This document shows positions 21,952-45,744 of a stretch of DNA of 64,000 bases, piece by piece; the first letter of the stretch is position 1; every line of letters starts with the position of its first letter. The DNA lies in IMG/VR virus record IMGVR_UViG_3300035698_007508, positions 62,755-126,754 of that record, one strand, 5' to 3'. A program made the position numbers and the translations under genes. This stretch comes from a virus. The notes under the pieces were generated by a model, which saw only the letters and a list, made by a program, of their open reading frames with translations, did not search any database and was not told the origin of the DNA.

Positions 21952-24297
21952 ATGAGTGACCGAATACAAATGATTCCGCCGCACACCGTCCGTTCACGGG
22001 TGCAAATTCTCGCCGAGAAGCAGGACTACAACCACAAGCTGATGAACATTCCGGCGATGTGGGCGCGCACGCGGGGCAAAGGCATCAAAGTTGCGATCCT
22101 CGACACTGGCCGCCCGAACCATGTGGACCTCAACCCGTCCGGTAGTTGGACGGCGTACCCAGGTTACACCGAGGACGCCAATGGCCACTCCACCCATTGT
22201 GGTGGTATTGTCGCCGCTATCGCCAATAACAGTATGGGCGTGGCCGGTATCGCCCCGGAAGTCGAAGATTACTACGGTGCTGTGCTGGATAGTGACGGTG
22301 CCGGCGATATCCAAGCTATCGCAGACGGTATCCGATGGGCTGTGGACGAGCTCGGCGCTGATGTGATCAGCATGAGTCTAGGTATCTCCGCCGGCGCCTC
22401 GGTGTTAAGCCAGTGGGAAGATGCTTGCGACTACGCCGTTCGCCAGGGTGTGGCAGTCTTCGCCGCGGCCGGTAATGAGTACGGCGACGTCGGGCAGCCG
22501 GCACAGTACGACTCGGTCATTGCGATCGCTGCAGTCAACAGCCGTAGGGATCACGCGAACTTCTCCAACACGGGCCCGGAAGTTGACTTCGCGACTGGCG
22601 GTGTGGACGTATATTCGACGTATTTGAACAACTCATACGCCAAACTGAGCGGTACGTGCCTTGCTGGCGGTACTAGGGTATGGACAAACGAGGGATTGAA
22701 GTGCATCAAAGATATGGAAGAAGGAGACTTCGTATGGTCTCTTGATGAATCTATGAACCTTGTGCCTAGGCGGTGCGTGGCAAGGATTAGCAACGGAATT
22801 AGGGAGACACACACAGTAAAGACCGGTAACCAGACAATTGATGGAGTTACGGAAAATCATCCTTTTCTTGTTGTGCGGCGTACTCCGAAAAACGACAGGG
22901 ATCTGGATGGCCACGTGTGGAAATTCAGCGGGAGACGCTATGATGTTGTGGCGCGCTGGATTCCCCTGTCTGACATGGTTGAGGGGGATATGGTTGTTGT
23001 GCCAAAGTCTCTTCCAGGTGGTAATGAATTGAATGTTGTTGGTCTAGCCAGAGAATGCGGAATTGACTGCGACAGTATAGACGGGGTGGCACTGTGCCAG
23101 GTTGTGGGTGCATTTATCGGCGATGGATCATATGTCCGTGACAACAGGAGAGCAAACACCCAAGGAATCACATTGGACATCGGACTCAATGATCCGGAGT
23201 TGGCTGACAGGTACAAGGCGCTTATTGATGACTTGTTCTGCGTCGAGTCTCACAATTACGATGGTGACGTAAGAGTTTATTGTGTGGCTGCAGCCCAATT
23301 CCTCGCAGGGTTAGGACTAACAGACGGAGCACACGGGAAAAGGTTACCACAATGGATTTGGAGTCTGAAATCCAAGTACCGTAAGGCAATGCTTGCTGGA
23401 ATAATCGATAGCGATGGAACTATAGGTAAAAACGGACGAGCAGTGATTTCGATGTGTAATTTGGAACTAATCCACGACATCAAAGCGCTCGCCCAGGGTC
23501 TGGGATTCTTGGTATCTAATGTCTTATCCAGAGAGCGAAGGAACCCATTCCTTGATGATGTTAGTCGAGCAGGGACGGAACAAGTTGAATGGGTAAATGA
23601 GCATACAATCAGTTTGTCGAATCCAGGACGGATAGCTGAATTGCCGATGTTATCTTCTTCAAAGAAGCGGAGGGCAATGTCTGCTAGGCATATGGATTTC
23701 CGGTGTTTTTATCGTAATTTCCATTTTCATATGGATGATGTTTGTCTGAAAAGAGTGACTGAGATTTCCTCAAAAGGGGCGGAAGAAGTATTCGACATAA
23801 CTGTGGAAGGTTCGCACAACTTTATTGCTGAGGGGATTTTAGTACACAATAGTATGGCGTGCCCGGCCGCGGCCGCCGTGGGGGCCCTGATCCTGGCTGA
23901 CGCGCTACAGGGCGGTAAGAAACTATCGCCGGCTGAATTGCGCGCTAAGCTGCGCAAAATCGCGTATGACGTAGGCGCAGACGGGTTTGATGAGGTATAT
24001 GGCCACGGTATCCCGATTTTCGGGTCCGGCGGTGACCCATATGACTCTGACAATGTGCCAGAAGGGCCGGTAGAGGTTCCTGACGCACCCGACACAGGTA
24101 AGAAGTTCGGTATCAGGTCTGACTGTGCTACCTGGCGACTGGCGCAGACGCTGGTATTAGGTATGGCGTATGACCTGAACTGTGGAAAGCATATTGACCA
24201 GGCGTGGGCCCGTGCTATTAAGCAGTTGGCGGGCGATATGGCTGGCCTGGATAAGTTGATTCGCGCACGTGAAGCGGTACTCGACCGCAAAAAGTAA
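21952..24297 (+). CDS. Subtilisin-family (S8) serine peptidase containing an intein
   Basis: Catalytic Asp (VAILDTG), His (NGHSTHCGGIV), oxyanion Asn (AAAGN); GT|SMA motif split by the insertion. Confidence 0.92.
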   Translation: MSDRIQMIPPHTVRSRVQILAEKQDYNHKLMNIPAMWARTRGKGIKVAILDTGRPNHVDLNPSGSWTAYPGYTEDANGHSTHCGGIVAAIANNSMGVAGIAPEVEDYYGAVLDSDGAGDIQAIADGIRWAVDELGADVISMSLGISAGASVLSQWEDACDYAVRQGVAVFAAAGNEYGDVGQPAQYDSVIAIAAVNSRRDHANFSNTGPEVDFATGGVDVYSTYLNNSYAKLSGTCLAGGTRVWTNEGLKCIKDMEEGDFVWSLDESMNLVPRRCVARISNGIRETHTVKTGNQTIDGVTENHPFLVVRRTPKNDRDLDGHVWKFSGRRYDVVARWIPLSDMVEGDMVVVPKSLPGGNELNVVGLARECGIDCDSIDGVALCQVVGAFIGDGSYVRDNRRANTQGITLDIGLNDPELADRYKALIDDLFCVESHNYDGDVRVYCVAAAQFLAGLGLTDGAHGKRLPQWIWSLKSKYRKAMLAGIIDSDGTIGKNGRAVISMCNLELIHDIKALAQGLGFLVSNVLSRERRNPFLDDVSRAGTEQVEWVNEHTISLSNPGRIAELPMLSSSKKRRAMSARHMDFRCFYRNFHFHMDDVCLKRVTEISSKGAEEVFDITVEGSHNFIAEGILVHNSMACPAAAAVGALILADALQGGKKLSPAELRAKLRKIAYDVGADGFDEVYGHGIPIFGSGGDPYDSDNVPEGPVEVPDAPDTGKKFGIRSDCATWRLAQTLVLGMAYDLNCGKHIDQAWARAIKQLAGDMAGLDKLIRAREAVLDRKK
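22657..23850 (+). mobile_element. Intein with LAGLIDADG homing endonuclease (398 aa)
   Basis: Starts CLAGGTRVWT, block B 'TENHPFLV', LAGLIDADG motifs 'VVGAFIGDGS' and 'MLAGIIDSDG', ends 'VFDITVEGSHNFIAEGILVHN' followed by Ser. Visibly AT-richer than flanks. Confidence 0.95.
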
Positions 24298-32139: not shown

Positions 32140-33336
32140 ATGGACGTCCTTCACGACAACAGCTTTCGTACTTGGACCAAAATCGCGTCCGTAGTCGGGG
32201 AAGCCAATATCCCGGATTACGTACGACAATATACACCGCCAGATGAGCAGACTGCAAGCGCTATGTCGGACTCCGACTTTGCTGACCCGGGCAAGCGGGC
32301 CTGGCCGATCGACAGTCAGGCTGCTACGTGGCTATCTGCGGCGTACATGTTAGAGAAGGAAGCAGGACCTCTTGCTGCACTCATTGCACGCAGCTTTAAT
32401 AGGCGAATCGTCAAACCAGTTGGGGCCAAGTTGAAGCAAACAATACGTGACTGGCTCGCTACGCCCGCAGTTGAGCCGCCATCTGATGTACCCGTGCCTG
32501 GTACGGCGTCTGCGAAGATTGCAGAAGCCGTGCTAGCGTGGGATATCAAAGATGACGTGCTCAAATTGGCCGAGGCGTTCGTGGCGCGTACAGGGCAGAC
32601 CAAGCAGGCAAGCGCTGTTGAAGCCAACTACGGCTGGATCCTCAAGGACGCATCCGGAGCTGTCACAGCCCGTCGTTACGGCGTGTTTGATGTACTGGGC
32701 CTGGGTAAGGCTGCGACCTATTTTGACGCCAACCGCCGGCATTATCCGCTCGCTATCAGGACCGGTATCGCCCGATTCCTCATGCAGAAGGCTGCGGAGT
32801 ACGCGGTCGAGTACGAACAGTTGCCGACCAGCGTGTTGCGCGAAGCCGGGTACGGTGTGCCCCGTAAGTCCGTGATCATGCGCGAACTTAACGAGCGGGC
32901 ACAACTTGCCAAAGATGCCGAATGCGGGATCCTACTAGCCAACGTAAACCGATTGATCGGTACCGGCACGGATGCGGAAGTCGCTGAGAACCTGGACAAG
33001 ATTGCCGAAACAATTGACGCGTTTGATCAGGCAGAAGACCTTACACGTTACTACGGTAAGCGCATCACGCACCCGTCTGACTTCCTATGCAGCGTGACCT
33101 TCAAAGAGGCTGAGGCCTTCGTCGAGAACACGGTGACATTGCGGAAACTATCGTTCGACGTGCGCAAGCTACATACGACACCTGCGTTCCATAAGGCGGC
33201 TCAAACCGCCATGGGCGACGACTTCGATAACGCGTTGCGGGGACTCGACGTGGCTAAGACCGCAGCACTGCTGCGTGCCCTACCACTGGAAGACCGCGGT
33301 GCGCTGGAAGACAGTATAGTTGCGCTGTGTGATTGA
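32140..33336 (+). CDS. Hypothetical head-region protein with DUF6582-like motifs
   Basis: 'SDSDFADPGKRAWPID' and 'KAATYFDANRRHYPLAIRTGIARFLMQKAAEY'; AAGGAG RBS. Confidence 0.55.
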   Translation: MDVLHDNSFRTWTKIASVVGEANIPDYVRQYTPPDEQTASAMSDSDFADPGKRAWPIDSQAATWLSAAYMLEKEAGPLAALIARSFNRRIVKPVGAKLKQTIRDWLATPAVEPPSDVPVPGTASAKIAEAVLAWDIKDDVLKLAEAFVARTGQTKQASAVEANYGWILKDASGAVTARRYGVFDVLGLGKAATYFDANRRHYPLAIRTGIARFLMQKAAEYAVEYEQLPTSVLREAGYGVPRKSVIMRELNERAQLAKDAECGILLANVNRLIGTGTDAEVAENLDKIAETIDAFDQAEDLTRYYGKRITHPSDFLCSVTFKEAEAFVENTVTLRKLSFDVRKLHTTPAFHKAAQTAMGDDFDNALRGLDVAKTAALLRALPLEDRGALEDSIVALCD

Positions 33337-34689: not shown

Positions 34690-36156
34690 ATGACACGTAG
34701 CACGCAAGATCCACCGGGCATCCCTCAGCGAGGCGAAACAGGCGACCCGACTACAGGGTTAAAACCTGGCCTGGTGGACTTCGTGCTTCAGCATCATCTG
34801 ACCCAGCGTAACCCTACGCGACCTCACTACGACTTACGACTCGGTACCCCCGACACCGGCCTGTTCTCATGGGCGGTGCCGGGGGCCCGGCTTCCCGAGG
34901 AGCGTGAGAAGGTGCTGGCGCCGCAGACAGATCTACACGATTACGCCTATGGTAACTACCAGGGCAACATCGCCAGCGGGTACGGCGCCGGCCAGGTACG
35001 GTTACACGAGCGCGACCAGGCGGAGATCACTAAAGTCACGCCCAAGACGATCAGTTTCACGCTGGCCAATACCCGTAATCCCGGGCGATACTCGCTGATT
35101 CATATCGGCACCGGCAAGCGTGGCCGCGACTGGCTGTTGATCAAGCGGCCAGACGTACCAGGCGGCCCGGTAAAGATGATGCCTATCGATGCCGGTAGCA
35201 CGGCCGAAGCTATAGAGCAAGTGAAGGAGGGTACGGTGAGTAAAGCGAGTAAGAAAGACGTGTGCCCTAAGTGCGGGAAGACACTCGGCGGGTGTGCCAA
35301 GTTTGCTGTCACTGACGGCGAGAAGTTCTTCCACCCATGGTGCTTGAAGAAGAAGGCCCGGATGCAGAAAGAGTCGCAGGCGAACACACCGCCATGGCTT
35401 GATGATTTCACCAAACGTTTGTGGATGCGTGAAAATGCAGGACGTACAGGCTACGACCCGGTCAAGCGCGTATGGGGTTCCTACAAGGATATGAACAAGG
35501 GCAAGGCTTTACGCGCCGCGTACGGCCCAGGCGTGGTAGCGCCGGCAGGGCAGACGTTCACGCAGCAGCAGCTGGACGCGCTGGTCCGTAAAAGCGTGCT
35601 CAAGCATTGGCAAGACACACAACGCGTGTATCCCGGTGTCGCTACCAAATCACCGCACGCACAGCAATTGATGGCCGATCTCGTGTACGCAGGTGCTGGC
35701 ATTGACCCGAAGACAGGCAAGGCCGCGTACCCTAAACTGTGGGAGGCGATCCAGGCACGTGATGGGGCGGGTGCCGCGGGCCAGTACCATGTGAATTTCA
35801 CCCCGGAGGGCGGGACCAAAACGCCCAACGTCCGACGTAACGCCATGAATCTCAAGGATTACGTGACGCCCATGACCAACGGCTGGAATGCGGCTACGCA
35901 GCAGCTGGAAAAGGGCGGCGCAGACCACCTGACGCTGAACAAGCTTTTGACAGCCGCCGGTAAACTGACAGATAAGCACCCGAGCCCGGAGCAGGCCGAG
36001 GCTGGTAACTACCAGAAGGGTCACGTCAGTATGCATGGGTTGGATATCTCGATTGAGAATCCACGAGGTAGTACGCGCAAGGGCGTGAGCGCTGACGGTA
36101 CCGAATGGTCCACGCGTATGGTCGGAGCACATTACGGATACATAATTAAAGGATGA
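34690..36156 (+). CDS. Polyvalent protein, 5' part: LigD-type 3'-phosphoesterase, Zn ribbon, lysozyme-like domain, N-half of InPase-like domain
   Basis: 'FVLQHH...HYDLRL...SWAVP...GYGAGQV' (LigD PE); CPKC..HPWC; 'LWMRENAG..YKD..AYGP...ADLVY..RRN'; 'ISIENPRGSTRKG...W...HYGYI'. Confidence 0.8.
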   Translation: MTRSTQDPPGIPQRGETGDPTTGLKPGLVDFVLQHHLTQRNPTRPHYDLRLGTPDTGLFSWAVPGARLPEEREKVLAPQTDLHDYAYGNYQGNIASGYGAGQVRLHERDQAEITKVTPKTISFTLANTRNPGRYSLIHIGTGKRGRDWLLIKRPDVPGGPVKMMPIDAGSTAEAIEQVKEGTVSKASKKDVCPKCGKTLGGCAKFAVTDGEKFFHPWCLKKKARMQKESQANTPPWLDDFTKRLWMRENAGRTGYDPVKRVWGSYKDMNKGKALRAAYGPGVVAPAGQTFTQQQLDALVRKSVLKHWQDTQRVYPGVATKSPHAQQLMADLVYAGAGIDPKTGKAAYPKLWEAIQARDGAGAAGQYHVNFTPEGGTKTPNVRRNAMNLKDYVTPMTNGWNAATQQLEKGGADHLTLNKLLTAAGKLTDKHPSPEQAEAGNYQKGHVSMHGLDISIENPRGSTRKGVSADGTEWSTRMVGAHYGYIIKG

Positions 36157-36497
36157 AGATAAAGCTAACATGTGTAGATTGTGGGGCCGCACGGGAGTTT
36201 TACCCTAGCGAGTTAAGCGGTATAAGCCGCGCACCGTATCCCGAGGTCTGGTCGCCGGTCCTACGCCGACGGGTACGTGAGCGCGACAACTATACTTGCC
36301 AGCTGTGCGGTACCGCCTATTTAGGCGGGCGTAAGTTATCTGTACACCATATCGATTATAACAAAAACAACTGCGCGGATGCTAACTTGATAACATTGTG
36401 CCTACCGTGCCATACTAAAACGAATTTCAATAGGGAAGAATGGACAATATATATGCAAAGACTACTACAATCGGAGGCGTATCATGCTGTCGCGTAG
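36153..36497 (+). CDS. HNH endonuclease inserted into the InPase-like domain
   Basis: 'RERDNYTCQLCG...LSVHHIDYNKNNC..NLITLCLPCHTKTN'; AT-richer than flanks; overlaps both flanking ORFs. Confidence 0.9.
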   Translation: MKIKLTCVDCGAAREFYPSELSGISRAPYPEVWSPVLRRRVRERDNYTCQLCGTAYLGGRKLSVHHIDYNKNNCADANLITLCLPCHTKTNFNREEWTIYMQRLLQSEAYHAVA

Positions 36498-38223
36498 CCC
36501 GATTGGTAAAGATGGAGATCACGTGGACGTGTTCATCGGCCCATACCCGGCTTGCACGATGGTTTTTATTGTCGATCAGCAGAACAAGGACGGCACTTTT
36601 GATGAACATAAGTGCATGCTTGGATTCAGGGACGAGGCAGAAGCCCGCGCTGGCTACCTCGCCAACTACGAACCGGGGTGGACAGGCTGTGGACCCGTGA
36701 CAGCCCTATCCATGGGCGAGTTCAAGGAGTGGCTGGACAGCGGTAACACGGGTAAGCCGTGTGCTAAGCAGTTCAAGAAGCAGGCTGACAGCGAGCTAAA
36801 CCTACGTCATATCCTGACGCTAGTCAAGCAGGCCGCAGGCATCACAGGCTGGCACGGAATAGATTTAGATGGGACTTTGGCAACATACGACAGCTGGAAG
36901 GGCGATGACTATATCGGGCGGCCGATCAAACTGATGGCTGACCGGGTCAAACGGTGGCTGGCCGACGGCCAAGCAGTGAAGATCATGACCACGCGGGGCG
37001 GCAACGGCCAACAGGCGATCGATGCAGTACAGGATTGGACTTACGCCCACTTCGGGGTCCGGCTGCCCGTCACGGACACCAAGGACAAGGACATGATCGA
37101 TCTGTACGACGACCGGGTGCACCGGGTCCAGAAGAACACGGGCGTCAAGCAGGCTAGTAACAAGGCCTTCCAGACGGCGCTCGACGCGTCGGACATACCT
37201 GGTGATATCTACTTCTACACCGATGGAAAAGAGCGGTGTACCGCGTGCTTCGGTGACTGGCACGAGCGCGAAGATTGGGATGCCGCAGCTAAGCTGGCCA
37301 AGAAACACTTCTCCAACTGGGAAGAGCCTGACGATTCGGAGATAGGGCGCCCCGACTGGGTTACCAAGTCATACAGCAGCAAGAACATGGCGAAGGACGC
37401 CGGTATCCGCCGGGTGATCAAACGCGCCGCCATAGAGCTCGACATCGAGATCGGTGACACACTGCTGTTTGGCAGGTACAAGAACAGCCCCAAGGTGGTC
37501 GAGGACATCGGCACAGACGCCAAGGGCCAGCCTACCGTCAACGGGATGAAGCTCCTGGCCTGCCGGATCGAGAAGAAGATGGCAAAGAAGGCCGAGTACG
37601 TGATCAATGATTGCCCGACGTGCGGCGACACTACTAAAGACCGTCGCAAATTGGATCCAGGCGAGAAAGTGGTACATACTGCGGATGTTTGTTATGCGTG
37701 TAAGACCAAGCAGGCGGAGAGCAAGCAACGGCTGTTCAAGAAGGACGAGCCTTATCCCGCTGTCGAGAACTGTGAGACCTGTGAGCGCTTCGGCCCGACT
37801 AAGGACGCCGCTATGGTCAAGAACGTACCACTCAAGGTTGTCACGGCCGACGAACAAGTGCGAACAAAGCTCGTGGCTGAGCTGGCTGACACGCCGGATA
37901 AGCGTACAGTTGGCCTGTCCAAGCGCGCCACGCTACCGCCAGGTACCGGTATGCTGTTCGATATCCCAGGCCCGTTCTGGATGAAGGACGTTAAGTTCGC
38001 GCTCGACATCGTCTATATGGACAAGCAAGGTACCGTCACTGAGATCGGACACATGCCGGCGCCGCCTCGTTACGTCCCGGACAGACTGATGCCGCGGTAC
38101 CAGTCTAAATCTGCGTCCACCGCCATCGCTTTGGAAATGCCAGCCGGGTGGGCGAATAGCGTGAAGCTACAGCCCGGCGATCGACTAGAGATTGACAAAC
38201 ATGACGATACTGCAGTACATTAA
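36484..38223 (+). CDS. Polyvalent protein, 3' part: C-half of InPase-like domain, HAD phosphatase, small domains, DUF192
   Basis: 'GKDGDHVDVFIGP...VFIVDQ...FDEHKCMLGF' ; 'GIDLDGTLA...IMTTR...LYDDR' (HAD); 'ELADTPDKRTVGLS...GMLF..FWMKDVKFALDIVY...ALEMPAG' (DUF192). Own GGAGG RBS. Confidence 0.85.
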   Translation: MLSRSPIGKDGDHVDVFIGPYPACTMVFIVDQQNKDGTFDEHKCMLGFRDEAEARAGYLANYEPGWTGCGPVTALSMGEFKEWLDSGNTGKPCAKQFKKQADSELNLRHILTLVKQAAGITGWHGIDLDGTLATYDSWKGDDYIGRPIKLMADRVKRWLADGQAVKIMTTRGGNGQQAIDAVQDWTYAHFGVRLPVTDTKDKDMIDLYDDRVHRVQKNTGVKQASNKAFQTALDASDIPGDIYFYTDGKERCTACFGDWHEREDWDAAAKLAKKHFSNWEEPDDSEIGRPDWVTKSYSSKNMAKDAGIRRVIKRAAIELDIEIGDTLLFGRYKNSPKVVEDIGTDAKGQPTVNGMKLLACRIEKKMAKKAEYVINDCPTCGDTTKDRRKLDPGEKVVHTADVCYACKTKQAESKQRLFKKDEPYPAVENCETCERFGPTKDAAMVKNVPLKVVTADEQVRTKLVAELADTPDKRTVGLSKRATLPPGTGMLFDIPGPFWMKDVKFALDIVYMDKQGTVTEIGHMPAPPRYVPDRLMPRYQSKSASTAIALEMPAGWANSVKLQPGDRLEIDKHDDTAVH

Positions 38224-38599
38224 GGACCTCAGACACAGATGGCGCCGAGACAACAGCGTGCGTATTCGCATGGCCAGTTACCGGCGCGAACGTAGCGGAA
38301 TAGTGACAATATGTCACTCTGAGTACCAGTGGCGCAAGGTCCGGAACGAGCACGTACGCGACGAGCCTGTGTGCCAGGCATGTAGCACGGACAAGAAGTT
38401 ACAGGTACACCATATAGAGCCGTGGCACGTATGCGTTGCCAAGCGTTTCTTACGCAGCAATCTGATTACGTTGTGCCAGTCCTGCCACTTCCGGTTCGCG
38501 CATCTGTTGAACTGGAAGAATTGGAATGTGCAGATCAGATCGCTTTGCGCAATGATGCGTATACAGCTCGATATTGCAAAGGAGACCCGACATGACTAA
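38201..38599 (+). CDS. HNH endonuclease
   Basis: 'WRKVR...CQACS...LQVHHIEP...NLITLCQSCH'. First ATG at 38201. Confidence 0.85.
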   Translation: MTILQYIKDLRHRWRRDNSVRIRMASYRRERSGIVTICHSEYQWRKVRNEHVRDEPVCQACSTDKKLQVHHIEPWHVCVAKRFLRSNLITLCQSCHFRFAHLLNWKNWNVQIRSLCAMMRIQLDIAKETRHD

Positions 38600-41500
38600 G
38601 TGGATCATGACGATTTGTGCAGCCCTGGCATTGACGACCGGCGCACTAGCGGCGGATGTCAGTACGCGCAGTAACCCCAGCACCATACTCATTCAGCTCG
38701 GCGTGGACGGTGTTACGGAGACAGGCGGCACGAACGGCGCCAATCGACTGGTCAAGACCGACTCGGACGGCCTGCTGGACATATCGCTCGTACCCAGTAC
38801 CGCCACGACTGCGCCCAATCTCACTGGCGCTATCTACATCGACGCAGGTATGGGCGCCGATACGGGTACCGGCGCTATCACCGCCCCGTACAAGACTTTC
38901 GCTGCCGCGGTGGCGGCCGCTACCGACGATCCCATGGTGTACGTATTCGGTGCGGGCTCGTACAGTCCGCCAGCCGACATCACGACCGTAGCCAAGTCGC
39001 ACATGACACTGGTAGCGCTCGATCCCGATCCTACGGCCACTGCCATCACAGGCAAGATCCGCTTCAATACTGGCGCGGCCGCCGAGATCCACATCTATGG
39101 TATGCAGGTATCGACGGTGCGCCGGGTTGACGCGAACGACATCACAGTCAACTTGTACAATCGCGCTGCGCTCACGACCCTGGAGACGGGTATCGTGTCC
39201 CCCGCGTTCGACATGATCGTGAACCGGGATCCGACCGTCAGTACCGTACCCACCGGATCAGACGTCGACGTATTTGAGCTGCACCGCGCTGCGGACCTGG
39301 GGTTCGCACCTACTACGGTCGGCCGCAAGCTACTGACGAATGACTACTACACGATCGCAGCGGCTCTGGAAGCCTTCCTCACCCAAGAGTACATGCCGGC
39401 CGGTACGAACGGGGGTCAGCTCGCATACTGGGACGGTACCAACTGGATGTCCGTAGCGAAAGGCGCGCTCGACGAGGTTTTGATTGGCGGGGACGTGCCA
39501 CAATTCTTCAAGCTGGTGATCAGCGGCGTCGTGACAGGTGAGTACGATAACGTTGTATTGATCCCTGACGCCGTGACCACCACCAACATCCAGGATGGCG
39601 CTGTCACGGCCGCCAAGACGGCCCCAGGCATCGATGATGACGACACCGACGACCTGACGCTCACGGCCAACTTCGGTGGTGATGTCACCAACACTTATGA
39701 TGACGTCGTGGTGATCCGTATCCACCAGCTACCTGTCGTGGTGCCAACCGCCGGGCAGGACAGTATGGCCTTGACGTACATAGCTGCATCCAATCACCTG
39801 GGCTGGGCGGCGTACATGCTCACGTCCATCTATGATGTGGACACCAACGGCATTATAGACATCGCCGAGACCATGGCCGGAATCACCAACTACTACACCA
39901 AGGCCGAGGCAGACGTTGCATTCGTCGATACCAACGAACTGGTCGTAGCACTGGCCGACTACTACATGACCGGACAGGTCGCTACGATCTTCATCGATAC
40001 CAATGAGCTCGCACTGGCGCTGGCTGACTACTACACCCAGGTGCAGATCGACAGCATGTTCTGGACGACAGGCGAGGTCTCAACACTCTTTATCGACACC
40101 AACGAGCTGGCGACGGCTCTGGCGTCGTATTACACGACGGGGCAGGTACAGACAATCTTTGTCGATGCTACCGAGCTGGCCGCGGCACTGGCTGACTACT
40201 ACACGACCGGACAGGTACACAACGTCTTCGCTGACCTGACACAGCTGGCGCTCAAGTATGATAAGACAGGCGGCACGGTCACGGGCGATATGACCGTGCT
40301 GGGAACCATCACGGGGCCTACCGGTGTGTTTGACAGGGTGACACTGGACGGTATGACACTGACCAAGCACGCGTCCGGGTACTTGCTGCGCGACGGTAAT
40401 CAGGTGTGGGATGAAGCCTCATTTGATCCGGGCGCCGCCGGTTTCTGGATTCAGAGCACAACCAACATCGCATCAACCGCCATCGGTTGGTACACGATCG
40501 CTACCGACTTCGAGTCCGGTTGGGTCACGCCGTTCAAGATCGCAATCACCAACGACTCGTGGTCCAGCGCAGAAGTCCTGTATTTCGACATCCTGTGGCA
40601 CGGTGACCAGCCGGATATGCCTATCGCCCAGATCAAGTATTACGGGTGGGAGCAGACTGGTACGCAGCAACTGATCCATGACGACGGTATCAAGATCGTA
40701 CGGAACGGCACCGACAGCTATCTGGCCATCCGGTTCCTCACCATTGACAACGCGATGACCATCGACACGTGGGGCCCGCAGACTACGATACCTGCACTGG
40801 CCCTTACAGTAGGCGAGCCGGCAGGCACTGAGTCCATTTCCGTAACGTACAGCGACTTCAACGATGCCTGGCGCTGGAACGGTAAGCTGTACATGTATGC
40901 GGAAGACTGGACGAACCTGATCTACGACGCGTTCCAGACTGACGGCTCTACCGTAATGGCGGCCGATGGTTCCTTCGGTGGGTACGACCTGACTGATGTG
41001 GACCAGCTGTACGTCAACGGGCTGCGCGGTACGAACGGTACACTGCACTTCAATTTCGAGACGCATACGGCCGGGTCAGGGCTGTGGACTGACCTGGATG
41101 CGGACTTGCTTGATGGTCTCCATGCCAGCTCCTTCTACCAGGCGGGCGTACCGTTCGTCGCTGATCTGCTGTTGGGTACCAACGATATCCGACAAGTGGC
41201 ACGTATCTATGATTGGACAGCCACACAAGGTATCGATATCGAGAATCACGCCAGCCTGAGTACTACGCTGTGGACCAACTGGAACGCGGACCTGCTGGAT
41301 GGTATCGACAGCACGGCGTTTATGCGTCACAGCCAGCTCACCGAGGGGTATGTACGCCTCAACACCAATGACTTGCGTGGCATCAAGCGTGTCTACCTGG
41401 ACAGCATCGCCGAAGGTATCGATATCGAGAATCATGCCAGCCTGAGTACTACGCTGTGGACCGACTGGAATGCGGACCTGCTCGACGGTATCGACAGCAC

Positions 41501-43205
41501 GGGCTTCCTGCGTAGCGGTACTAATGCGATAGATCTCATTATACAGACTGTCGGGTGGACTAACCTCAATGACGGCCTGGACTTCACGGACCACACGTCT
41601 CAGTCAACCAGCAAGTGGACGGACCTGAACGCGGACATGGTGGATGGTATCGATGGTGCTAACCTCTTACTCCTAGACGGCAGCATCCCGGCGCAGACGT
41701 TGGCTGCGGCCGATTGCGACCTGGACGCAGGTAACACCGGTTGGACTATAGGGGACGGCTACAGCCCGGATCCGTTTACGCTCGCCTACTGGAACGAGCA
41801 ACCGTATGCCGGCTATACCGCGGCGTTCATCCTGCAAGACAAGGCGTACTTCAATGGCAGCGCTGACACCGAGGGATCGATCAGCTACAAAGGCGATGAA
41901 CTGGCAACCTGGTACCGCCCAGGCCGGTATCTGCGCGTCCGGCTGCTGGCGCACAACTTTAACGCCACCACCTCGATACGCGTGTATTATGACACCGACG
42001 GCGGCAACATCTCCGGTGCGACTGAATACAGCACGTGGTCCGCTGGTGAGATCCCCGACGGCACTTATACAGCGTGGCGCTACTACTACCTCAAGGCACC
42101 GATCGAGGCCGATGACTTGCAGATCTACGTGTGGAACTTGACAGCCGGCGAGCTGGGGTGGATCGCTGACATCGACATGGACTTCTGCCAAATTGGTGAT
42201 ATGTACGTAGCTGGCACATTATACGCCGGTTCGGTTGAGACCACCTACGATACGGCTTACACGAATGTGTACGCGCCAACCATGACAATCTACAATGGCT
42301 CGCTAATCGTGCACGGCGATATCTTGACCGAGAGCGCGCTGTTCGTAGATACGATCCAGCTGGATGCGGCGAATGCTGGTTTCGATTACGATCCCGATGA
42401 CAGCGATCCGAACGATATCTGGACGTACGCGGGCGCAAGTACGTGGATCACTAACTACGCCACCTTCATAACCTTGGACGCGGATAACCCGGCAGTGGCG
42501 TTCACCAACACCGCGACCGCAGAGTGGACTACTGGTACGGTGTCGCACACCATCGCGGATCTGGGTACGTACTTCGAGGTGGGTGACACGCTGAACGTCA
42601 CTTTCGATTATTACTCGTTCCCGGGATACGATACTAATGCCAACTGGTACGTAACGTTCTCGCTTGGCGGCGTTACACAAGAGTTTGTGTACGCGTCATC
42701 GATTGGTGACCCTAGCGGCTTACTTAGCGCTACCAACAGCATCACGCTATCGAACGTCGTGGATAACACCTTTGAAATACGAGTCGTCAACAAGCGTACC
42801 GGCACCCCTGACTGGTACTGGTTCATCGTGGACAACCTACAGTTTGAGGGCGAGGCGGGTACACCACGCACGGTGTCCGCAGGGCAGGTTGCCACAGATA
42901 CGCTGTCGCCGCGCACGGGTACAGATCTGACGTTCACGGGTAACCTACTACCTAACGGGTCCAACACGCTGGATATCGGATCGGCCGCACTACCGCTCAA
43001 AGAGCTACACGTAACCGATCTGTACGTCAGTGCATCGACGTTGTACATTGGTGGCGTGGCAGTCAACCCGCCAATTATGGTCGAAGTCCCTGCGGCGGTT
43101 ACTAACTCCGGCGTGCATGGCAGCATGGCCGTCGGCGCTGACTATATCTACTTTTACAGTGAAGATCTCGGCGAATGGCGGCGAATACAAGGTTCGACGT
43201 TCTAA
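38592..43205 (+). CDS. 1537-aa tail-fibre-like repeat protein with N-terminal signal-peptide-like sequence
   Basis: GGAG RBS before ATG 38592; 'MTKWIMTICAALALTTGALA|AD'; 'ADLLDG' trimeric-fibre motifs and internal repeats. Confidence 0.7.
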   Translation: MTKWIMTICAALALTTGALAADVSTRSNPSTILIQLGVDGVTETGGTNGANRLVKTDSDGLLDISLVPSTATTAPNLTGAIYIDAGMGADTGTGAITAPYKTFAAAVAAATDDPMVYVFGAGSYSPPADITTVAKSHMTLVALDPDPTATAITGKIRFNTGAAAEIHIYGMQVSTVRRVDANDITVNLYNRAALTTLETGIVSPAFDMIVNRDPTVSTVPTGSDVDVFELHRAADLGFAPTTVGRKLLTNDYYTIAAALEAFLTQEYMPAGTNGGQLAYWDGTNWMSVAKGALDEVLIGGDVPQFFKLVISGVVTGEYDNVVLIPDAVTTTNIQDGAVTAAKTAPGIDDDDTDDLTLTANFGGDVTNTYDDVVVIRIHQLPVVVPTAGQDSMALTYIAASNHLGWAAYMLTSIYDVDTNGIIDIAETMAGITNYYTKAEADVAFVDTNELVVALADYYMTGQVATIFIDTNELALALADYYTQVQIDSMFWTTGEVSTLFIDTNELATALASYYTTGQVQTIFVDATELAAALADYYTTGQVHNVFADLTQLALKYDKTGGTVTGDMTVLGTITGPTGVFDRVTLDGMTLTKHASGYLLRDGNQVWDEASFDPGAAGFWIQSTTNIASTAIGWYTIATDFESGWVTPFKIAITNDSWSSAEVLYFDILWHGDQPDMPIAQIKYYGWEQTGTQQLIHDDGIKIVRNGTDSYLAIRFLTIDNAMTIDTWGPQTTIPALALTVGEPAGTESISVTYSDFNDAWRWNGKLYMYAEDWTNLIYDAFQTDGSTVMAADGSFGGYDLTDVDQLYVNGLRGTNGTLHFNFETHTAGSGLWTDLDADLLDGLHASSFYQAGVPFVADLLLGTNDIRQVARIYDWTATQGIDIENHASLSTTLWTNWNADLLDGIDSTAFMRHSQLTEGYVRLNTNDLRGIKRVYLDSIAEGIDIENHASLSTTLWTDWNADLLDGIDSTGFLRSGTNAIDLIIQTVGWTNLNDGLDFTDHTSQSTSKWTDLNADMVDGIDGANLLLLDGSIPAQTLAAADCDLDAGNTGWTIGDGYSPDPFTLAYWNEQPYAGYTAAFILQDKAYFNGSADTEGSISYKGDELATWYRPGRYLRVRLLAHNFNATTSIRVYYDTDGGNISGATEYSTWSAGEIPDGTYTAWRYYYLKAPIEADDLQIYVWNLTAGELGWIADIDMDFCQIGDMYVAGTLYAGSVETTYDTAYTNVYAPTMTIYNGSLIVHGDILTESALFVDTIQLDAANAGFDYDPDDSDPNDIWTYAGASTWITNYATFITLDADNPAVAFTNTATAEWTTGTVSHTIADLGTYFEVGDTLNVTFDYYSFPGYDTNANWYVTFSLGGVTQEFVYASSIGDPSGLLSATNSITLSNVVDNTFEIRVVNKRTGTPDWYWFIVDNLQFEGEAGTPRTVSAGQVATDTLSPRTGTDLTFTGNLLPNGSNTLDIGSAALPLKELHVTDLYVSASTLYIGGVAVNPPIMVEVPAAVTNSGVHGSMAVGADYIYFYSEDLGEWRRIQGSTF
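39891..40260 (+). repeat. About five 23-aa repeats (YYT.GQV.TIF.DTNELA.ALAD)
   Basis: Visible in translation and as recurring 'gactactac...ttcatcgatacc aacgagct' DNA. Confidence 0.85.
41227..41502 (+). repeat. Two near-identical 90-nt direct repeats (41227-41316, 41413-41502), part of four W.D.NADLLDG repeats
   Basis: aaggtatcgatatcgagaatca.gccagcctgagtactacgctgtggacc... copies differ at about five positions. Confidence 0.9.
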
Positions 43206-43965: not shown

Positions 43966-45744
43966 ATGTCTGTCTCTTTGAACACCGTACACGACGTCCT
44001 GGCCAAAGCCGGTGACGGAACAATCCGTCCAGACGAGATCGAAGCACTGCTTGATGATCCCGACTTCCAAAAGCACATCCGTGGCGTTAAGCGCTCGGAC
44101 CTGCTACCAGCCATGTTCAAGATCCACGGTACGGAATACTCCCTTGCGGACTATCCGCAATTCTGTGCCTTGTACGATGCTCTTTACGTACCAGAGGTGA
44201 TCTTCATGTGTGGCCGGCAGGTTGCTAAATCAACCAACCTGTCGCGCTACGAAGTCATGAACTGTATGCAGATCCCTCACTTTCAGGTGCTGTACGTGGC
44301 ACCGCTGCAGTCACAAACGCACCGTTTTTCCAGTCTGTATCTACGGGAGTCAATCAACACCTGCCAGTACGCACGCTACTTGCAGGATGCCCGAGTCCAA
44401 GATGAAGACGCTGGCCCGATCATGAAGTCGGTTGGGCACCAGTCTTTCGGTAACGGTGCTGGTATCCAACTCACCTACGCCAAGACCAGCGCTGACCGAG
44501 CGCGTGGTATCTTTTGTGACGAGATCGACTGCGACGAGCTCCAGGACCACCTGGTGGACAACCTGGGTATTATCATGCAGTCGCTGACTCAGTCCAAGTG
44601 GGGTCTCAAGCGTTACACTGGTACGGCCAAGACTGTGGACAACACCATCGAGTTCTACTGGCAACAATCCAGCATGGCTGAGTGGGCGATGCCGTGTAGT
44701 TGTGGGTATTGGAACATCCCCAACATCGAGGGCAACGTGCTGGACATGGTCCAAGTACATGGCCCGTCATGCATCAAGTGCGGGCGCAGGCTTAATGTGC
44801 GTGCGGGTGAATGGATTCACGCCAAGCCTGACCTGTCTAATCGCTTCGTTGGCTATCACATTCCGCAGATCGTCGTTCCGGCCATTACCGAGGACCCACG
44901 TAAGTGGATGGAACTGCTAGACAAGGTTGGCCGATACCCGATAGCTACGACGTACCAGGAGATCCTGGGGATCAGCAGCTCCATCGGTGCCAGGCTGATC
45001 ACACAAGAGGACATCGAGAAGTACTCGACGCTCCCCTCCGTACTTGAACTCCAAAAGAAGTTGAAGAACTACCCGATTACCGTGAGCGGTGTCGACTGGG
45101 GTATCGCGGAACAAACATCTTTCACCGTCCATACGGTCATTGGGATTCGTCCGGATGGTAAAATACACGTCCTGTGGGCCAAGCGTTACATCGGGTTCGA
45201 TACCGATACGTTGCTCAAGGATATCGCACAGACACACAGGTTCTACCGTTGTAGGCTTATGTGTGCTGACTTCGGCGTAGGGTTCACCCAGAACACTATG
45301 CTATCACATCGGTTCGGAATACCGCTCATACAGGTGCAGTATACCCGACAGCAACAACTGATGACGTACAGGCCGCTACTGGGTTACCCACGCTGGGTGG
45401 TCGACAAGGTGGCGGCCCTGGAGTTGATGTACTTTTCCATTAGGTACGGACACATCTTCTTCCCGCCTCAGTCCGAGTTCAAACGGTACACTGACGACCT
45501 GTTATCGCCATATCAGGAAGTACGCGACGAGCGAGGCCTCGAAAACGTGGCCTTTGTTCGTAATCCGAATATGCCGGATGACTTCACACACGCACTATGC
45601 TTTGCCATGCTCGGCGCTATGCGGCTGGCCGGCAGCAGCCTACTTGAAGCTGTACCGCAGGGTGCGATGGGTGCAGATGTTCACACGGTGGTTCAACCCA
45701 CCACGGACAGCATCGACACTATGGAACTGTTGCGTCCGGCTTAA
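43966..45744 (+). CDS. terL: Terminase large subunit (GpA-like)
   Basis: 'MCGRQVAKST' Walker A, 'YVAP', 'CDEIDCDELQD', 'YTGTAKT', Zn-ribbon C.CG..C.KCG, 'GYHIPQI', nuclease 'GVDWG' and 'PDDFTHA'. Confidence 0.88.
   Translation: MSVSLNTVHDVLAKAGDGTIRPDEIEALLDDPDFQKHIRGVKRSDLLPAMFKIHGTEYSLADYPQFCALYDALYVPEVIFMCGRQVAKSTNLSRYEVMNCMQIPHFQVLYVAPLQSQTHRFSSLYLRESINTCQYARYLQDARVQDEDAGPIMKSVGHQSFGNGAGIQLTYAKTSADRARGIFCDEIDCDELQDHLVDNLGIIMQSLTQSKWGLKRYTGTAKTVDNTIEFYWQQSSMAEWAMPCSCGYWNIPNIEGNVLDMVQVHGPSCIKCGRRLNVRAGEWIHAKPDLSNRFVGYHIPQIVVPAITEDPRKWMELLDKVGRYPIATTYQEILGISSSIGARLITQEDIEKYSTLPSVLELQKKLKNYPITVSGVDWGIAEQTSFTVHTVIGIRPDGKIHVLWAKRYIGFDTDTLLKDIAQTHRFYRCRLMCADFGVGFTQNTMLSHRFGIPLIQVQYTRQQQLMTYRPLLGYPRWVVDKVAALELMYFSIRYGHIFFPPQSEFKRYTDDLLSPYQEVRDERGLENVAFVRNPNMPDDFTHALCFAMLGAMRLAGSSLLEAVPQGAMGADVHTVVQPTTDSIDTMELLRPA

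Follow-up and report, generated by a model that had tools for sequence, protein, structure and literature searches.

The window analyzed here, a 64,000-nt stretch of viral DNA, makes up the second half of IMG/VR virus record IMGVR_UViG_3300035698_007508 (126.7 kb), which is estimated to be 60% complete and encodes a terminase, a capsid protein and a prohead protease. A nucleotide search against known phages gave no match. Between positions 34690 and 38223 the window carries the gene of a polyvalent protein, divided over two open reading frames (ORFs): ORF1 (34690-36156, 488 amino acids, aa) and ORF2 (36484-38223, 579 aa), which lie in the same frame about 330 nt apart. An earlier sequence-only reading of this DNA gave both ORFs with exact coordinates; it made no mention of a gene for an HNH endonuclease that lies between them and splits the InPase domain. 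The protein is a genuine polyvalent protein, of a kind already known. What is unusual here is the splitting of its InPase by a homing endonuclease, together with a conserved junction motif, K-x-A (lysine, any residue, alanine), which it has in common with the head-assembly proteins of its clade.

The modules follow one another in the order LigD 3'-phosphoesterase, Zn ribbon, lysozyme-like domain, InPase, Pnkp-like HAD phosphatase, two small domains, further Zn ribbons and DUF192. This list had essentially been drawn up in the sequence-only reading and is borne out by Pfam, by fold matches and by recurrence of the modules in relatives. Nine module types occur in ORF1 and ORF2, of which the LigD 3'-phosphoesterase, the lysozyme-like domain, the InPase, the HAD phosphatase and DUF192 are enzyme-like; three Zn ribbons and two small conserved domains make up the rest. 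The features are as follows, with an intact ortholog, P0090, serving for comparison.

34690..36156, + strand: ORF1, N-terminal half of the polyvalent protein, 488 aa; 70% identity to P0090 residues 1-373
34816..35100, + strand: LigD_N 3'-phosphoesterase, residues 43-137 (PF13298, E 2.1e-13, 50.8 bits, cut-off 31.1)
35263..35343, + strand: Zn-ribbon-like segment CxxC...HxxC, residues 192-218 (sequence reading; conserved in P0090)
35368..35898, + strand: lysozyme-like (GH24-type) domain of a rare family, residues 227-403 (ESM Atlas, profile, conserved Glu)
35989..36144, + strand: InPase, N-terminal third, profile positions 2-52 (PF18823, 65.7 bits)
36153..36497, + strand: free-standing HNH endonuclease gene that splits the InPase (PF01844, E 7.6e-5; PHROG HNH families down to 1e-13)
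36484..38223, + strand: ORF2, C-terminal half of the polyvalent protein, 579 aa; 52% full-length identity to P0090
36505..36735, + strand: InPase, C-terminal two thirds, profile positions 57-134, with the acidic motif DGDHVDVF (Pfam, 100.6 bits)
36844..37146, + strand: HAD-type phosphatase, DLDGT (fold matches; PHROG 1238, E 9e-5)
37159..37332, + strand: small domain A, motif CTAC...DWHE; found again in differently built proteins (P0092, P0099, P0100)
37429..37575, + strand: small domain B, conserved but not folded by AlphaFold; present in P0090 and at the N-terminus of P0095
37594..37797, + strand: Zn ribbons CPTC...CYAC and CETC, separated by K409-Q-A (C..C, z 7.4)
37816..38205, + strand: DUF192 domain, ORF2 residues 465-570 (PF02643, 83.2 bits, cut-off 27)
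38192..38599, + strand: second HNH endonuclease gene, in the 3' flank of ORF2 (PF01844, E 5e-7)

The His/Asp/Arg motif of LigD_N, HH...HYDLRL, was read directly in ORF1, and we take it to resemble that of LigD. Pfam zinc-finger matches to the Zn-ribbon-like segment that follows were sub-threshold only. The lysozyme-like assignment of residues 227-403 is supported but not proven. The region (ORF1 225-430) has just 17 homologs among 1.84 billion representatives and no Pfam match; 25 of its 30 ESM Atlas neighbors are Phage_lysozyme clusters (score 0.92), and the Glu of its ENA motif occupies a nearly invariant column, conserved in at least 90% of sequences. A family profile matches lysozymes in the PDB at E 2.6e-4. 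Some of these homologs carry LysM domains, which dominate the PDB matches of the profile, and only the weaker lysozyme matches concern the query domain.

The AlphaFold model of ORF2 (m570b13219c23) has a mean predicted local distance difference test score (pLDDT) of 69.7, with confident blocks at residues 11-99, 121-225 and 445-574 and low-confidence stretches between them. The second block carries the DLDGT motif at residues 127-131 (read directly), which is motif I (DxDxT) on a Rossmannoid fold. Its Foldseek matches are small HAD phosphatases, headed by the 3' phosphatase of T4 Pnkp (5uj0_B, prob 1.00, E 8e-3) and including GmhB and KdsC; no Pfam HAD family passed for this module. The DUF192 fold is confirmed by 3pjy (Foldseek E 1e-9, TM 0.79). 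C..C is the most over-represented residue pair in ORF2 (z 7.4), and the motif EPYP..CE.CERFGP recurs in P0007, P0100, P0102 and P0105. Pfam and PHROG scans of ORF1 and ORF2 found no peptidase family, and hence no built-in zincin-like MPTase.

Phage polyvalent proteins were defined as single polypeptides that combine 2-15 unrelated domains of effector or enzyme type (Iyer, Burroughs, Anand, de Souza and Aravind 2017; PMC5512222). The present protein has about nine modules, and P0090 is a single chain of at least 971 aa. The contents of the slot vary between related phages, in keeping with the mosaic architecture of such proteins, and the kinship to InPase-bearing polyvalent proteins proposed in the sequence-only reading holds (Pfam InPase; PMC5512222). 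The gene order of the slot is kept among relatives: a divergent primase-like gene, a DUF6582 protein, one to three small genes and then the polyvalent gene. The modules themselves shuffle, as a comparison of relatives confirmed. In a related phage (G001/L001) the slot holds InPase and DUF192, and in L019 it holds LigD_N with an ATP-dependent ligase, followed by DUF192 as a stand-alone gene, which fits modules that act as separate proteins. A further relative, P0092 (971 aa), joins LigD_N, an ATP-dependent ligase, an Acb1-like 2H phosphoesterase and DUF192 in one chain, so that this family of slots also includes a domain of anti-CBASS type. Small domains A and B and the Zn-ribbon motifs appear in a different order in relatives, and more distant InPase proteins are fusions to Mu-F, portal, RNA polymerase beta-prime, SET or ParB domains.

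The InPase does not form a single contiguous OB-fold domain, as its halves lie on separate ORFs with the HNH gene between them. The Pfam profile breaks at 52|57, with positions 2-52 falling on ORF1 434-485 and positions 57-134 on ORF2 8-84, and both parts score above the cut-off of 26.8 bits (65.7 and 100.6 bits). PHROG profiles of large virion, DarB-like and "endolysin" proteins match both halves at adjoining profile positions, which indicates that no part of the domain is missing. The ortholog P0090 is uninterrupted across the break, with 70% identity to ORF1 105-485 and 52% to the whole of ORF2, and a 608-aa protein of the related 190-kb phage G001/L001 also reads through it. The gap contains many stops in the frame of the two ORFs and, in another frame, a 114-aa ORF (36153-36497), the HNH gene. 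Its ATG overlaps the stop of ORF1 (ATGA), and a GGAGG, read directly 6 nt upstream of the ATG of ORF2, lies within its 3' end.

Because the HNH ORF stands inside a domain that is contiguous in P0090 and L001, with neither intron nor intein, the gene has been split by a free-standing homing endonuclease. A group I or II intron over the gap was rejected, as no relevant Rfam match appeared up to E 1 and the gap is filled by the HNH ORF; an intein is ruled out by the different frame of the HNH gene and the many stops in the frame of ORF1. A search for flanking repeats or bypass signals at the split found nothing beyond one 9-nt chance repeat. The two HNH genes that bracket ORF2 are the only ones in the available genome sequence and are 35% identical to each other; the G+C content of the first seems to be below that of its surroundings. 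ORF1 and ORF2 are now translated separately, ORF2 from its own GGAGG ribosome-binding site. Since both halves retain the conserved catalytic motifs (IENP and DGDHVDVF) and are 65% and 41% identical to intact domains, the InPase is probably rebuilt through non-covalent association of the two pieces.

The second unusual feature, K-x-A, is concentrated in ORF2, where it occurs 13 times against 4.8 expected from shuffled sequences (p about 4e-4); KQA alone occurs 4 times against 0.16. Eight of these 13 sites overlap low-confidence AlphaFold segments, which make up 31% of the chain. When residues were shuffled within those segments, 7 K-x-A stood against 1.6 expected (p 2e-4), while the confident parts held 5 against 2.9, which is not significant. 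This comparison of boundaries with domains, which the sequence-only reading had proposed as a check, thus comes out in its favor for ORF2. Eight of the ten boundary motifs it had listed are genuine K-x-A; KAS and KES do not fit. Nine ORF2 sites lie at junctions (residues 99, 115, 222, 304, 313, 365, 368, 409 and 440). Apart from the site between the Zn ribbons, listed above, the junctions with K-x-A are these.

35350..35358, + strand: K221-K-A223, the sole junction K-x-A of ORF1; P0090 has K-Q-A there, shifted by a few residues
36778..36834, + strand: linker with K99-Q-A and K115-Q-A; pLDDT < 50 at residues 100-120; P0090 has K-F-A and K-T-A
37147..37155, + strand: K222-Q-A junction; K-Q-A is identical in P0090, and the sequences diverge thereafter
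37393..37428, + strand: linker with K304-D-A and K313-R-A; low pLDDT; P0090 has K-Q-A at the second site
37576..37593, + strand: K365-M-A and K368-K-A junction; P0090 has K-K-A
37801..37809, + strand: K440-D-A, immediately 5' of DUF192; K-x-A there in 8 of 9 aligned relatives

P0090 retains K-x-A at six ORF2 junctions, with a different middle residue and different flanks. In an alignment of 17 proteins the motif stands directly before DUF192 in eight of nine relatives, with D, K, L, Q or H as the middle residue, and it also follows DUF192 wherever more domains come after it. Within 30 residues past the InPase it is found in 66 of 113 homologs (58%), compared with 23% in random windows. Among 186 broad homologs, K.A exceeds expectation only 1.23-fold against about 1.07-fold for controls, which indicates that the motif is specific to the clade and not general to InPase proteins. 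For a co-occurrence of junction K-x-A with the protease family described below, five other InPase-carrying phages were too few to be informative: none of them has the protease; K-x-A follows the InPase in L008 and not in L002, and in the remaining three the InPase is C-terminal. A DNA-level motif behind K-x-A was ruled out: the corresponding AAR-NNN-GC is almost confined to the coding frame and shows background codon usage, which points to a signal at the level of the protein. K-x-A is thus a selected, statistically robust and conserved element of the ORF2 linkers.

The same motif marks a particular set of proteins of this phage. Among the 48 ORFs of the window, only ORF2 and a DUF6582-type protein, encoded three genes upstream, reach p < 0.01 for K-x-A.

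32140..33336, + strand: DUF6582-type protein of 398 aa in the same late gene block; K-x-A 14 against 3.5 expected

In the DUF6582-type protein, K.A ranks first of 1600 gapped residue pairs (z 6.5). In two orthologs the counts are 12 (3.0 expected) and 13 (3.4 expected); site positions are kept there and the middle residue varies. The protein may be a head-internal or scaffold-like substrate of a protease. In the rest of the genome, a 486-aa protein has 16 K-x-A against 3.2 expected, and K.A again ranks first of 1600 pairs (z 8.3). Its gene (G000:C1:46243-47700; L033:10244-11701) lies outside the window. It is followed by a 450-aa ORF (L033:11724-13076) with 16 against 6.1, all within the first 274 residues, and then by a 150-aa ORF (L033:13089-13541) with 6 against 1.5. 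These two motif-dense ORFs thus stand between the protease gene, as the 486-aa gene proves to be, and the major capsid gene. The capsid protein (L033:14152-15123; Atlas 0.98) is encoded just downstream and has K-x-A at residues 32-34 (33-35 in G001). A 492-aa protein has 7 against 2.4, all in its N-terminal half (first 265 residues), and a 950-aa protein is enriched more weakly. The complete 190-kb relative G001 repeats the whole head-gene pattern. Other motifs tried, namely [ASG].E and [LI].E as in known head proteases, [VLI].A as in herpesviruses, and R.A, are not enriched in these candidate substrates. Taken over 139 sites, the motif widens: L or F is favored 3- to 3.7-fold at the second position ahead of the Lys, and the Ala is followed by S, E or A. 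The 450-aa scaffold-position protein also contains a low-complexity tract of PAKPA type.

The 486-aa protein is, by its predicted structure, a prohead protease of the T4 gp21 / assemblin fold. The AlphaFold model (mean pLDDT 85) comprises an alpha/beta domain (residues 1-213), a disordered hinge (214-229) and a helical domain (233-486). The N-terminal domain aligns with T4 gp21 at Z 12.3 in VIA-align (root-mean-square deviation 3.1, 148/164 residues; Foldseek prob 1.00); the next structural matches are herpesvirus proteases at Z 5-6, and the PHROG "head maturation protease" match is weak (E 2e-5). The family counts 177 proteins at E <= 0.001. In 108 homologs the mean number of K-x-A is 15.2, where 3.6 would be expected, and none has fewer than 11. 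At six sites the motif is kept in 85% or more of these homologs with the middle residue free, and one of the six, the nearly invariant K223-x-A225, falls in the disordered hinge between the protease and helical domains. The protease domain also has a conserved cluster (C156, C163, C166, C179, H181), which suggests an inserted zinc site, and many homologs, of about 840 aa, contain a Hint/LAGLIDADG intein.

The best reading of these observations, and one held with slightly more belief than doubt, is that the polyvalent protein is packaged in the head and cut by the prohead protease at K-x-A, which is probably a "cut here" signal not described before. The sequence-only view, of a packaged polyprotein cut into effectors that are delivered on infection, is supported in part. 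The link between motif and protease is drawn from the layout of the genes, which matches what mass spectrometry has established for T4, phiKZ and SPN3US: a protease with a C-terminal part of the cleavable type, motif-rich ORFs between protease and capsid genes, motifs grouped in N-terminal halves, and one site close to the N-terminus of the capsid protein. Packaging has indirect pointers in the InPase fusions to Mu-F and portal in relatives, in the lysozyme-like module and in the motif common to head proteins. On the broader claim, that an uncultured clade of roughly 190-210-kb phages uses a gp21/assemblin-fold protease with Lys at P3 and, as in herpesviruses, Ala at P1 instead of Glu, and places K-x-A marks between ejected modules in place of an MPTase, belief and doubt are evenly balanced.

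Under the proposed mechanism, the polyvalent protein would be loaded into the prohead, where the protease, of the T4-gp21/herpesvirus-assemblin fold, would cut [L/F]-x-K-x-A-[S/E/A] in the linkers between modules. Such sites would likewise serve to dismantle the C-terminal helical part of the protease, the scaffold-position proteins and the DUF6582 protein. The freed modules would then be ejected along with the DNA. The lysozyme-like module could open peptidoglycan locally; the LigD phosphoesterase and the Pnkp-like phosphatase could heal damaged 3' ends of nucleic acids, to which relatives add a ligase; and the InPase, with the Acb1-like 2H domain in a relative, might remove pyrophosphate or nucleotide-like signals. 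Together these activities would counter host nucleases and defense signaling in the first minutes of infection. Early anti-host roles of this sort have been proposed in general terms for polyvalent proteins (PMC5512222).

Several observations weigh against cleavage of a packaged protein at K-x-A. The claim of the sequence-only reading that K-x-A linkers separate the domains of both ORFs stands for ORF2 and fails for ORF1, which has 3 K-x-A against 3.7 expected and shows the motif at one of its three junctions, the other two being without it. The existing division into two chains was caused by the HNH insertion and not by proteolysis. Of the ORF2 sites, four fall within domains of confident fold, one at residue 270 and the others in DUF192. 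In the protease itself, the fully conserved K38, K82 and K334 sit in confidently predicted helices, and such sites may be structural rather than cleavage sites. Lys/Ala would also be a new specificity, since the characterized gp21-type phage proteases cut after Glu. Moreover, about 50 kb separates the polyvalent gene from the block of head genes, a search for a capsid-targeting signal was negative, the phage is known from metagenomes only, and the split of the InPase could signal decay.

The last of these points can be developed into an explanation of its own, in which the HNH insertion has damaged the polyvalent gene, leaving the InPase dead and one or both halves heading for loss. The catalytic residues are indeed divided over two polypeptides, and the ortholog P0090 is intact. 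Decay of this kind seems improbable given the sequence conservation of the InPase halves, with IENP and DGDHVDVF kept; both ORFs remain open without further stops, and ORF2 has a strong ribosome-binding site. It would in any case cover the InPase only and is compatible with cleavage between the other modules. As for the motif, its frequency in ORF2 might be a by-product of Lys/Ala-rich linkers or of multiple testing, with a protein that works uncut. Such an account can draw on the absence of enrichment in ORF1, on a whole-ORF p for ORF2 (about 5e-4) that becomes borderline once corrected for about 100 ORFs and on the junction-location test, which by itself gives p 0.036. It is nevertheless largely refuted already and very improbable: the linkers at fixed composition still hold 7 sites against 1.6, the same proteins show no excess of the control pairs R.A, [VLI].A, [ASG].E and [LI].E, the sites persist across orthologs although the middle residue and flanks change, and K.A stands at the top of the 1600 pairs in two further proteins.

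A different possibility is that K-x-A is truly selected without being a prohead-protease site, and serves instead in capsid targeting or scaffold binding, in lysine modification or as the site of another protease. Many conserved K-x-A sites of the protease family do lie in helices of confident fold, the phage encodes an S8 subtilase (21952-24297) that could act as the alternative protease, and some InPase relatives carry SET (lysine methyltransferase) domains. Set against this are the hinge position of the most conserved protease site, the location of the ORF2 sites in linkers and the clustering of K-x-A in N-terminal halves and in scaffold-position ORFs, which resembles that of phiKZ-type cleavage sites (PMC10052503); no SET lysine methyltransferase was found in the 60% of the genome searched. 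On balance this possibility is unlikely, though it deserves to be taken seriously, and cleavage of a head-packaged polyvalent protein at K-x-A is preferred.

How the modules of polyvalent proteins are freed has so far been largely unexplained, and a K-x-A cleavage motif, if true, would explain it. Polyvalent proteins are thought to be the toolkit of the phage for the first minutes of infection. If the motif is what it appears to be, module boundaries and mature products could be read straight from sequence, the set of mature head proteins could be predicted for an entire clade of uncultured phages, and the known specificities would be widened for a capsid-protease family common to tailed phages and herpesviruses. 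The module set, with the ligase and Acb1-like 2H domain of relatives, points to delivered nucleic-acid repair combined with anti-signaling, which amounts to a counter-defense hypothesis.

Other genes of the record were noted in passing. An intein that contains a LAGLIDADG endonuclease interrupts the S8 subtilase (Pfam). Downstream of the polyvalent gene, a 1543-aa fiber-like protein without a family match (window 38574-43205) lies upstream of the large terminase subunit (window 43966-45744; PHROG 675, E 6e-50). Outside the window, L033:284-3244 encodes a fragment that resembles RNA polymerase beta-prime and contains a LAGLIDADG/Hint intein, and in relatives RNA polymerase domains are fused to InPase (P0094) or to the lysozyme-like domain (P0192). 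The fragment and these fusions suggest that the phage has a multisubunit RNA polymerase, which the virion may carry.

Several known systems offer comparisons. Like other end-healing enzymes such as the LigD phosphoesterase and the T4 Pnkp 3'-phosphatase, the protein has LigD_N above cut-off and a HAD fold closest to Pnkp; unlike the LigD and T4 Pnkp systems, it has no ligase, polymerase or kinase module, and its relatives add an ATP-dependent ligase and a 2H/Acb1-like phosphoesterase to the end-healing set. The split gene has a counterpart in nrdA of the Aeromonas phage Aeh1, which is reportedly split by the free-standing homing endonuclease gene mobE. In both, an endonuclease ORF lies inside a conserved domain with neither intron nor intein, each half is translated by itself, the downstream one from a ribosome-binding site of its own; the target differs, being here the InPase domain of a polyvalent protein.

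With the polyvalent proteins of Iyer and colleagues the present protein shares the many unrelated enzyme domains on a single chain (the hairpin-less InPase and a lysozyme among them), an architecture that varies among relatives, a late-gene context and a presumed delivery with the DNA (PMC5512222). LigD is not named in the main text of that study. Unlike those proteins, it is without the zincin-like MPTase that was proposed there as the processing device and that is frequent, not obligatory, in the family (PMC5512222). It further differs in that its junctions bear a short motif common to head-assembly proteins and in that an HNH gene splits it.

The closest parallels to the proposed processing come from head maturation. 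The proteases of T4, phiKZ and SPN3US process head and ejection proteins at motifs of three residues, of which a propeptide has several, and also cleave themselves in the C-terminal part (PMC5694885, PMC10052503). As in these phages and in 201phi2-1, the present phage has a gp21-fold protease whose C-terminal part has sites of its own (PMC5694885, PMC10052503), scaffold-position proteins with several short three-residue motifs and a site near the capsid N-terminus. All characterized gp21-type phage proteases cleave after Glu (PMC5694885), at L/I-x-E, S/A/G-x-E or A-x-E, whereas here K-x-A is enriched and the Glu motifs are not. In gp21-type phages, moreover, the cuts take off N-terminal propeptides, while here they would part modules along the chain.

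In herpesvirus assemblin, a scaffold-like helical part follows the protease and is released by autocleavage (PMC8537868). The protease of this phage resembles it in fold (Z 5-6) and in the helical part that comes after, although the kinship is distant, the hosts belong to different kingdoms and [VLI].A is not enriched here. Herpesvirus assemblins have Val or Leu at P3 and Ala at P1, often with Ser at P1', which at the last two positions would match K-x-A followed by S, A or E. If so, Ala at P1 would not be foreign to this protease fold.

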